From Psilocybe cubensis (lineage: Eukaryota): a stretch of DNA of 64,000 nucleotides. The DNA lies in NCBI GenBank assembly GCA_017499595.2, contig CM038999.1:1550001-1614000 (forward strand), written 5' to 3'. The translations under genes were made by a program, and so were the position numbers. Within the stretch, counting starts at the first letter, position 1. Each line of letters opens with the position of its first letter. Shown here piece by piece: positions 23,790 through 25,600 of this stretch. The notes under the pieces were generated by a model. It ran no database searches. It was not told the origin of the DNA and saw nothing but the letters and a program-made list of their open reading frames with translations.

Positions 23790-25600
23790 ATGCCATCTTT
23801 TCCAGTGGTCATCGAGGACACCTCTCCGATGCTGACGTTCTCGCTCACGGACTGGCGGGCAGGCGTCTCAGGAGACAGTCAACTAGATCAGTGAGTGCCA
23901 TGGTTAATGGGCGCCCATTACCTCATTTGCAGGGATGGCTAAATAAAAATTGATCTTTTGGCGATCATTGCTTAGATACAGCCAAAGCAGCTACTTGTTG
24001 ACTCAAACAGACGGAGCGATGATATCTCTCGAGTTTTACGGCAACTCTGTGCAGATCTTTGGCTCCAAGCGCTCGTACCATGGTTTGTACATGGTTCAAC
24101 TCGACAAGAACCCCTTTCAAATCTTCAATGGCATTTCGGATACGGAACTTTTCCAGCAATCTTTATTCAGCGCGTACATAACTTTAGGAGATCACGAGAT
24201 TCGGATATCGAATCAAAACAACACATTTACAGATGTAAACTACGTGCGTTTATTTTAAACATTATCTAGACGACTGCTCATCCAATTCGACTTTGCAGAT
24301 TGAATTTCAAACCAGTGTCGGGGCTGTAGATGAGACGCTCATTGTGAACACGTTTCAAGATGGACATTCTTCCTTTAATTATTCGCCTCCCACGTCTTGG
24401 AGAACTCCACAAAATGTCGGTACCTTTATAGGAAGCACTGGACAGTGAGTTCAAACTTGTTGATATCGTCAATCCCACAAGTATCAACCTGACCAATCGC
24501 AGTGCAACTACAGACCCATTGGCATCTGCTAACTTCACATTTACAGTAAGTTCATGCCACTTTTCAAACTTATTTGCACATGTCTTAACGAAATATGTGT
24601 CTAACAATGTCAATAAAGGGTAAGCGCCCATGACCCACTCCCGATAAGCGCCGATCAATGAATCTAAGCGCTGACCTTTTTCAGGTGATGCGGTTGCTTT
24701 ATATGGGCCTGTTGGTCCGAATAGCTGCACGGCATACTCTGTCAAGGTGGATAATGGAAACCCTACCGTATTTTCAGCGAGTAGGCAGTTTTATAAGCCC
24801 CAGCAAATCTTGTTCTATGCTTTTAATCTCGGCAGTGGGCAACATGTGTTGCAGATATAGTTTCCGGGATTATCAACATCAGGCGAGTTTGCGATTGATT
24901 TTGCGACTATATATACAGCGCCCTCTCTTGGTGGAAGGTGAGCTTGGAGATCACTGGAACGAGTGCATTAACTCAAGACCTAGCAGCTTTGTTGGCACAG
25001 ATTCTGTGGCTGATGCACCCAACCCTTCCAACGCCGTAGTTCCTGTCGCAAGTGTCGCAAGTGCGAATGAAAGGTACCGCTATAATCGAATTTCCATTTC
25101 TACCTGGGACCTCATTAAAGGCTATTTTTAGGGATCTTATCATTGGGATCGCCGTTTCTGCAGGCATCGCCGCACTAGCGATCATATTGTGCTTCATACT
25201 CTTCTTGCGCCGCTCAAGAACGAGTCATACAATAAAGTTAGATGATAAAGAAACTGAACGACACGGAAAGGTGGTTTCTCCATTCACATATATACCTTCC
25301 GCACGGGCTATAAGCCTCAATTCGGCGGCATCGCGAGCATCCGAGTCGCAGACGATGCTGCGACGCGGGCAGCGGGGACAGCACAGTAAATTTACACAGA
25401 GTCAGGCACCGGCACCGTTCCTGGGGCAGGTCGATGAAAATCACCATCGTGTGGAGACGAATGCATCTAGGTCTGAAACCGGGGTTCAAGTTTTTTCGCA
25501 GGTTGCTGAGGTTCACATGTCGCAAGAACATACAGACAGCTCGGTTTTGCCCCCACAGTATACTCTCACTCCTCGAGGTAACAGTCATGGTCGTTTGTAG
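23790..25600 (+). pseudogene. Single-pass membrane protein with two tandem beta-sandwich-like extracellular repeats; in-frame TAG at 24858-24860 (pseudogene, null allele or sequence error)
   Basis: MPSFPVVIEDTSPMLTFS...SLEFYGNSVQIFG...YMVQLD; second repeat FTFTGDAVALYG...YSVKVD...LGSGQHVLQI*FPGL...FAIDFATIY; TM LIIGIAVSAGIAALAIILCFILFL then RRSR. Confidence 0.65.

Follow-up and report, generated by a model that had tools for sequence, protein, structure and literature searches.

Exons 4 and 5 of a Psilocybe cubensis gene raise a simple question: how can two exons be joined in frame, when the canonical splice sites at the two ends of the 139 nt between them differ in phase by one base? The last base of exon 4, at 24545, closes a codon (phase 0), and exon 5 opens at 24685 in phase 1. 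The gene lies within the 64,000-nt stretch of DNA analysed here (the window), and the answer that best fits the available data is that a single G, at 24619, is very probably a constitutive one-nucleotide exon, flanked by a U2-type intron of 73 nt on one side and another of 65 nt on the other, both of them complete.

The gene is read on the + strand from ATG to TAG, and was modelled with eight exons, giving 1368 nt of coding sequence and a frame of 455 codons (Table 1). With G24619 included, the frame is kept and the product reads ...ANFTFT-G-DAVALYGPVGP...; with G24619 skipped, the frame is lost. A first-pass annotation, made from the DNA letters, had already proposed that this G is needed for the frame, and the eight-exon model bears this out. 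It had also drawn a parallel between FTFT-G-DAVALYG, in the second repeat of the protein, and LEFY-G-NSVQIFG, in the first, and the joined exons give exactly that peptide, parallel to ...ISLEFY-G-NSVQIFG. The bases it had listed between 24545 and 24685 (donors, CTAAC, CTGAC, lone G, and acceptors) all agree with the sequence.

Table 1. Features of the gene, in window coordinates. A caret marks a splice boundary, here and in the text.
Feature	Position	Strand	Basis or remark
Whole gene	23790-25600	+	Introns 23891-23975, 24938-24986, and 25074-25131 confirmed by X1 joints
Exon 1	23790-23890	+	Gene model
Exon 2	23976-24243	+	Gene model
Exon 3	24299-24444	+	Gene model
Exon 4, 43 nt, phase-0 end TTC ACA TTT ACA (F T F T)	24503-24545	+	
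Upstream intron, 73 nt, GTAAGT...AAG (AAAG at end)	24546-24618	+	Read from sequence
Candidate branch site CTAAC, upstream intron (A at 24604, 14 nt before 3' splice site)	24601-24605	+	Consensus match only
Proposed one-nucleotide exon G, first base of Gly codon G^GT	24619-24619	+	Frame, paralogous RNA joint, homologues
Downstream intron, 65 nt, GTAAGC...CAG	24620-24684	+	Read from sequence
Candidate branch site CTGAC, downstream intron (A at 24674, 10 nt before 3' splice site)	24671-24675	+	Consensus match only
Exon 5, phase-1 start GT GAT GCG (-G D A), encodes DAVALYGPVGP...	24685-24937	+	3' end: X1 joint
In-frame TAG in exon 5, between VLQI and FPGLSTSGEFAIDFA	24858-24860	+	Gln in P. cubensis and P. 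cyanescens (LQIQLPG)
Exon 6	24987-25073	+	Gene model
Exon 7, last of the gene	25132-25600	+	Gene model

Both introns flanking the G are complete, each having a donor, a branch-site match, an acceptor, and a usual length. The remaining five introns of the gene measure 85, 55, 58, 49, and 58 nt. Given this range of 49-85 nt, halves of 73 and 65 nt are ordinary, while a single intron of 139 nt would be an outlier. When the 139 nt are shuffled, AGGG[T/C] with both halves of at least 40 nt appears in 3.8% of cases, so that the motif is, by itself, only mildly improbable by chance in the window. It is the frame requirement, the RNA joint, and the presence of the same layout in 35/35 genomic homologue copies that, together, place the one-base exon beyond chance.

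The product is a two-repeat, single-pass membrane protein, with two CE2_N-like beta-sandwich repeats, a PPQY motif at its end, and no obvious signal peptide. Pfam CE2_N scores stayed below threshold on the homologues P0007 and P0019 (19.4 and 23.9 bits, for a cut-off of 27.9), and Pfam gave no match on P0002. Neither Rfam nor a search for tandem repeats gave a hit anywhere in the window. The PPxY at the end of the cytoplasmic tail (PPQY or PPEY; 25555-25566 in the window) is kept across the family. PPxY is the kind of motif that is bound by WW-domain ubiquitin ligases.

Layout across the gene family

Genomic homologues were sought by scanning metagenome contigs with the family alignment. This yielded 36 loci, which were parsed over the 230 nt that precede the D/N-A-V-x-L-Y-G exon. 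Thirty-three of these loci hold 35 genomic copies, and all 35 show the same arrangement, exon^GT..AG^G^G[T/C]..AG^GN. Exon 4 ends with x-F-x-F-x in phase 0 in every copy, exon 4 of the window being homologous to this end, and the terminal GN completes a Gly codon (35/35). With the window counted, a G occupies the one-base exon position in 36/36 copies. The first-pass annotation had suggested looking for a shared AG-G-GT in orthologues, and the homologues extend this to AG^G^G[T/C]. Partial third copies at the ends of two contigs (L009 and L016) were left uncounted, as the region is missing there.

The 35 copies fall into 26 groups at >95% similarity, or 27 with the window; as the metagenome loci are mutually related, many of them coming from similar record series, 26 groups do not amount to 26 independent events. 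Shuffling leads one to expect AGGG[T/C], with halves of at least 40 nt, in 0.71 of the 27 groups, and it was observed in 27/27. The intron halves vary in length, from 47 to 84 nt upstream and from 46 to 71 nt downstream in the 35 genomic copies. The rest of the intron sequence has diverged beyond alignment, and the AG^G^G[T/C] motif has clearly been held in place. The strict branch-site pattern [CT]T[AG]A[CT] is missing from some halves of some homologues.

Several loci deserve individual mention. For example, two copies on one contig (L013 and L015) read F-T-F-A/S^...AG^G^GTATGT...CAG^GA GAT, and their exon 5 is 90-95% identical to the Laccaria-type transcripts P0019 and P0012. The three loci outside the genomic set differ in kind. 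L001 and L002 have no introns in the whole coding region and are cDNA-like, reading F-Q-G-N and F-Q-G-D. L030 (332-1198) shows 188 uninterrupted codons, then a 53-nt GT..AG sequence at the place of the upstream intron, then GGC, the downstream intron being absent. From its sequence, L030 could equally be genomic DNA that has lost an intron, or an incompletely spliced transcript from a distant relative. No same-species pair of cDNA and genomic sequences was found among the metagenome loci: the best match of L001 to another locus covered 137 nt at 76% identity, and neither L002 nor L030 had a hit.

Members of the family are often arranged in tandem, as at L004, at L016, and at L013 with L015, where a span of 3-6 kb holds two or three copies. 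Each tandem copy has its own one-base exon, which makes the layout older than these duplications.

The donor of the second intron is GC in five of the 27 groups (GCATGA, GCAAAT, GCACGC, GCGTGT, and GCAAGT), carried by L004 (the copy at 243), L016 (the copy at 2070), L029, L031, and L035/L036. GC-AG introns usually make up roughly 1% of introns, and the 5/27 groups found here are far above this.

Protein databases offer a second view of the junction. Exon 5 of the window matches Psilocybe cubensis (93%), P. cyanescens, Gymnopilus, Galerina, and a P. cubensis paralogue, and the full P. cubensis protein retrieves 32 homologues across Agaricales. The alignment used here (A1) comprises 28 proteins, P0021-P0025 having been left out as five near-duplicates of P0019. 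Ten of the 28 (P0007, P0008, P0012, P0014, P0019, P0020, P0029, P0030, P0031, and P0032) derive from short transcript-like contigs, which are JGI or Logan contigs of about 1.1-3.8 kb with contiguous ORFs of about 300-500 aa. All ten read F-x-G-D-A/G-V/I at the junction, so that, with L001 and L002, they show the extra G in the mRNA of relatives; this reading is absent from all 18 genome-annotation models. The first-pass annotation had remarked that gene finders miss one-nucleotide exons, and 0/18 genome-derived models of this family read the junction correctly.

All 18 public models are wrong here, at A1 columns ~190-250: exon 4 is left out, parts of an intron are kept, or the donor is placed 4 nt away. 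Three of them (P0004, P0009, and P0028) read Q/E-V-S-D, and two (P0010 and P0015) read E/Q-V-R-D; in all five, V-S-D or V-R-D would fit a gene finder that repairs the phase mismatch by setting the donor 4 nt further on, inside GTAAG. The ...S-K-G-D-A-V of P0002 and P0003 would be explained by AAG^G^+GT, if the last bases of the upstream intron were taken for coding sequence. P0027 carries 39 extra residues with R-V mid-way, as might be expected from a read-through of AGG GTN. Cyclocybe P0026, which reads Q-G-K-L...Y-L-G-N, suggests CAG G^GTAAGC...TAG^GT, that is, one retained 57-nt phase-1 intron.

Several short models end with ...SLGGR, which, in the window, corresponds to reading through the next donor (GGA AG^G TGA). 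The shared ending points to the same read-through in the other genes.

Transcript joints and a second gene copy

Contigs from four of the five runs listed for one organism were aligned to the window: X1 and X2 (presumed RNA), and X3 and X4 (DNA). X3 and X4 span the whole stretch without joints, which is how DNA behaves. X1 and X2 can be read as spliced transcripts, since they contain four intron-sized joints that are missing from X3 and X4, the RNA label itself being a guess. Three of these joints, all from X1, fall at other introns of the gene: 23890→23976 (85 nt, GT..AG), 24935→24985 (49 nt), and 25071→25130 (58 nt). The second of these matches the 3' end of exon 5 (cut +2).

The fourth joint, 24543→24682, skips 138 of the 139 bases, and is present in one X1 contig (depth 9.27) and one X2 contig (depth 9.17). 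It slides by 3 letters, giving TTTACAGGTGATG, and the RNA reads TTTACA-G-GTGATG. No joint skipping 139 bases was found among the X1 and X2 contigs, and no 138-base joint in the DNA runs X3 and X4. The first-pass annotation had predicted a spliced read of TTTACA-G-GTGATGCG. Such a read was indeed recovered, in one contig of each run, its source being a second, diverged gene copy. No X1 or X2 contig over 24546-24684 keeps just one of the two introns; contigs tend to drop rare forms.

The contigs bearing this joint are not from the window's own copy, which they support only indirectly, and resemble P. cubensis P0002. The X2 contig, for instance, differs from the window by 3 letters in 24503-24543 and by 10 in 24682-24790. 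Upstream of 24503, the joint-bearing X1 and X2 contigs encode A-G-T-F-I-G-G-T-G-H, as does P0002, where the window encodes V-G-T-F-I-G-S-T-G-H. P0002 is also the closest public protein to the window's product, at 69% identity overall. Searches of the 64,000-nt window with blastn and tblastn found no paralogue of the gene. The DNA runs contain a 44-nt contig (24678-24721) at about twice the depth of its neighbours; this doubling implies that the second copy has the same last 7 intron bases and the same acceptor, CAG^GTGATG.

Identity between the two copies is uneven. They are identical over these 44 nt (24678-24721) and about 91% identical in exon 5, and reach only about 80% over the final 30 nt of exon 3. 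This pattern may reflect gene conversion acting locally, near the one-base exon.

The window's own copy is transcribed in X1, where contigs 24692-24800 and 24784-24935 show no other letters. The X1 and X2 contigs that are specific to this copy cover neither exon 3 nor the joint between exons 4 and 5.

One X1 contig lacks 9 bases at 25044. The gap lies in exon 6 and keeps the frame, and is a length variant of the low-complexity linker ahead of the membrane helix.

The in-frame TAG of exon 5 is seen without other letters in the DNA runs X3 and X4, and in the X1 contig 24784-24935. Apart from it, the 455-codon frame is intact up to the normal stop and the PPQY motif. The TAG is probably a recent nonsense allele, or the mark of a disabled, still transcribed paralogue. 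The frame of the window's copy may, therefore, be free of selection, and this copy may be a recently disabled paralogue that has kept the ancestral layout.

A stronger reading of the same observations would make the odd phase itself a product of decay. The window's copy would be a decaying pseudogene, in which a 1-nt deletion at the donor (from ACAG^GT to ACA^GT) leaves one 139-nt intron and an mRNA that is out of frame. The TAG, found in both DNA and RNA contigs, fits this account, as does the lack of an RNA contig of the window's copy across the joint between exons 4 and 5. Nevertheless, it is very unlikely, because the phase-0 donor, the AG^G^G[T/C], and the phase-1 acceptor are the norm of the family (35/35 genomic copies) rather than a private lesion. 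Save for one TAG, the frame is whole and all splice signals are intact, and the paralogue's mRNA, when aligned to the window DNA, skips exactly 138 bases.

The joint could also be produced by a single intron of 138 nt with non-canonical ends, either GT (24546)...CA (24683) or TA (24547)...AG (24684). On this account, the G kept in the mRNA would come from the end of CAG in the former case and from the start of GTAAGT in the latter, and the internal AG-G-GT would be irrelevant. The RNA joint, being ambiguous by 3 positions, is compatible with this, as the mature mRNA is blind to which G stays; and as all loci have AG^G at the last acceptor and a G at the first donor, the trick would be workable everywhere. 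This solution is, however, highly improbable: it demands an intron that is neither GT-AG nor GC-AG in every member of the family, and leaves three observations unexplained. These are the AG^G^G[T/C] in 36/36 copies (for a chance expectation of 0.7 in 27 groups), an intervening length of 97-142 nt, about twice that of other introns (49-85 nt in the window), and the branch-site matches ahead of both AGs in the window. The reading with two complete introns and a one-base exon between them is retained in what follows.

Order of intron removal

Fungal introns are recognised as units, a mode known as intron definition, and with intron definition the length of an exon is dispensable for its recognition. 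The single G matches the consensus of both sites that it adjoins, AG^G and G^GT, so that one base can probably serve as an exon. G24619 would then supply the start of the conserved Gly codon (F-x-G-D-A-V) in the second beta-sandwich repeat of this Agaricales membrane protein, in an inherited layout, common to many paralogues and species of the family. Both introns would be recognised by intron definition and removed consecutively, because the acceptor and the next donor are one base apart, and two spliceosomes would hardly fit there together; the first-pass annotation had gone further, holding sequential removal to be required.

As to the order, the upstream intron may be the first to go: AGG^GTAAGC would become CAG^GTAAGC, a stronger 5' splice site. 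The GC-donor variants bear on this point. Exon 4 ends in A in 5/5 GC-donor groups, versus 11/22 GT-donor groups (about 0.05 by hand calculation, relatedness ignored). This gives a weak hint in favour of the upstream-first order, with an AG^GC that would form only after the first step; that order, if true, would explain the A ending in all five variants. No overall enrichment in A was found at the end of exon 4, with 16/27 groups versus 115 A to 89 G at the third positions of Q, E, and K codons in exon 5. L030, if it is a partly spliced transcript, favours the downstream-first order, since it retains only the upstream intron; neither this nor the case for upstream-first is decisive.

A broader scenario can be put forward tentatively, as possible rather than probable. 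The one-base exon would be ancient, predating the expansion of the paralogues and the split of several Agaricales families; it would be kept by its Gly codon and spliced upstream-first, and the independent loss of one or other flanking intron would appear as one-base 'sliding'. If the exon is both ancient and spliced in this order, the 5' splice site of the second intron would become complete once exon 4 is joined to the G. The family would then constitute a natural variant series for asking how an exon smaller than the footprint of the spliceosome is processed. More generally, both the order in which the introns leave and the one-base 'sliding' of introns can be approached through these natural variants.

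Known one-base exons and related systems

Stwintrons are one related fungal system. The [D1,2]/[A2,3] stwintrons, with their 1-nt intron shift, are abutting fungal introns that are spliced consecutively; once one or other part is lost, relatives are left with canonical introns that are 'discordant', their positions differing by 1 nt (Fekete et al. 2017, PMC5587772, in the sections drawn on here). The present family echoes that work (PMC5587772): L030 has only the phase-0 intron and Cyclocybe P0026 apparently only the phase-1 intron, the states that losing one or other flanking intron would produce. If L030 is a genomic copy after intron loss, it represents a one-base intron shift relative to Cyclocybe. 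The locus could be imagined as a stwintron proper, i.e., a nested pair in which an internal intron splits one of the signals (donor, branch site, or acceptor) of the external one, with two obligatory steps, given that consecutive splicing of abutting introns is known from fungi (PMC5587772). This is extremely improbable here, since GTAAGT...AAG and GTAAGC...CAG are both complete and neither splits the signals of the other, and since a stwintron leaves no base in the mRNA, while one base is retained here. Within the stwintrons described in the part of the study cited, internal introns overlap by one G, whereas one retained G separates complete introns in this gene (PMC5587772).

Zero-nucleotide recursive splicing was ruled out, as one G stands between AG and GT and is kept in the mRNA. 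In Drosophila, ratchet points (AG^GT) act by zero-nucleotide recursive splicing, with no base kept, and subdivide very long introns. The likeness is that a 3' splice site abuts a 5' splice site, and that a first step may regenerate a donor, here CAG^GTAAGC; the difference is that one base is kept here and that both introns are short.

Proper one-base exons form a short list. Arabidopsis APC11 contains a constitutive 1-nt exon between ordinary introns, as proposed here, and its authors favour intron definition and a one-by-one, 'recursive' removal (Guo & Liu 2015, PMC4674806, in the passages used here). APC11 is a plant gene, for which that text describes the use of GFP fusion constructs, whereas the present case is known from sequence and run contigs alone (PMC4674806). 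Closer in taxonomy, Coprinopsis cinerea has 13 genes that together contain 13 exons of 1 nt, according to an annotation based on long reads (PMC12230235). This species also belongs to the Agaricomycetes, in which 1-nt exons occur and leaving them out breaks gene models; unlike the present description, the text available from that source gives counts, without describing the 13 exons (PMC12230235). Its five searchable supplementary files contain no per-gene list of them (PMC12230235).

A literature search found nothing on this membrane-protein gene family or on Psilocybe microexons among the matches listed. Corrected models for the family, together with gene finders that apply an AG^G^G[T/C] rule to neighbouring exons that are out of phase, would improve basidiomycete annotations.

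A close parallel is the one-nucleotide exon of the Fusarium P450 CYP621A, presented as the first fungal case (Nelson & Syed 2026, PMC12940212; comparisons refer to the portions of the paper drawn on here). Both are found in fungal nuclear genes, with AG^G^GT and a G within a conserved Gly codon, and in both the intervening stretch is about twice a normal intron, measuring 139 nt in F. graminearum and 139 nt here (PMC12940212). Both were found through out-of-phase exon boundaries and break automatic annotation; CYP621A was confirmed by joint-crossing reads (PMC12940212), and here the joint is crossed by contigs of the second copy. They differ in that CYP621A is an ascomycete P450, as opposed to a basidiomycete two-repeat membrane protein, and in that its G is the middle base of the codon, whereas the G here is the first (PMC12940212). 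The CYP621A orthologues described come from one genus (20-24 genes), while the present family includes many paralogues, several Agaricales lineages, and GC-donor variants (PMC12940212). Set beside these systems, the family-wide one-nucleotide exon is a genuine new case of a known but very small class, and an unusually well-conserved one: none of the genomic copies examined lacks it, and the series includes GC-donor variants and possible single-intron derivatives.
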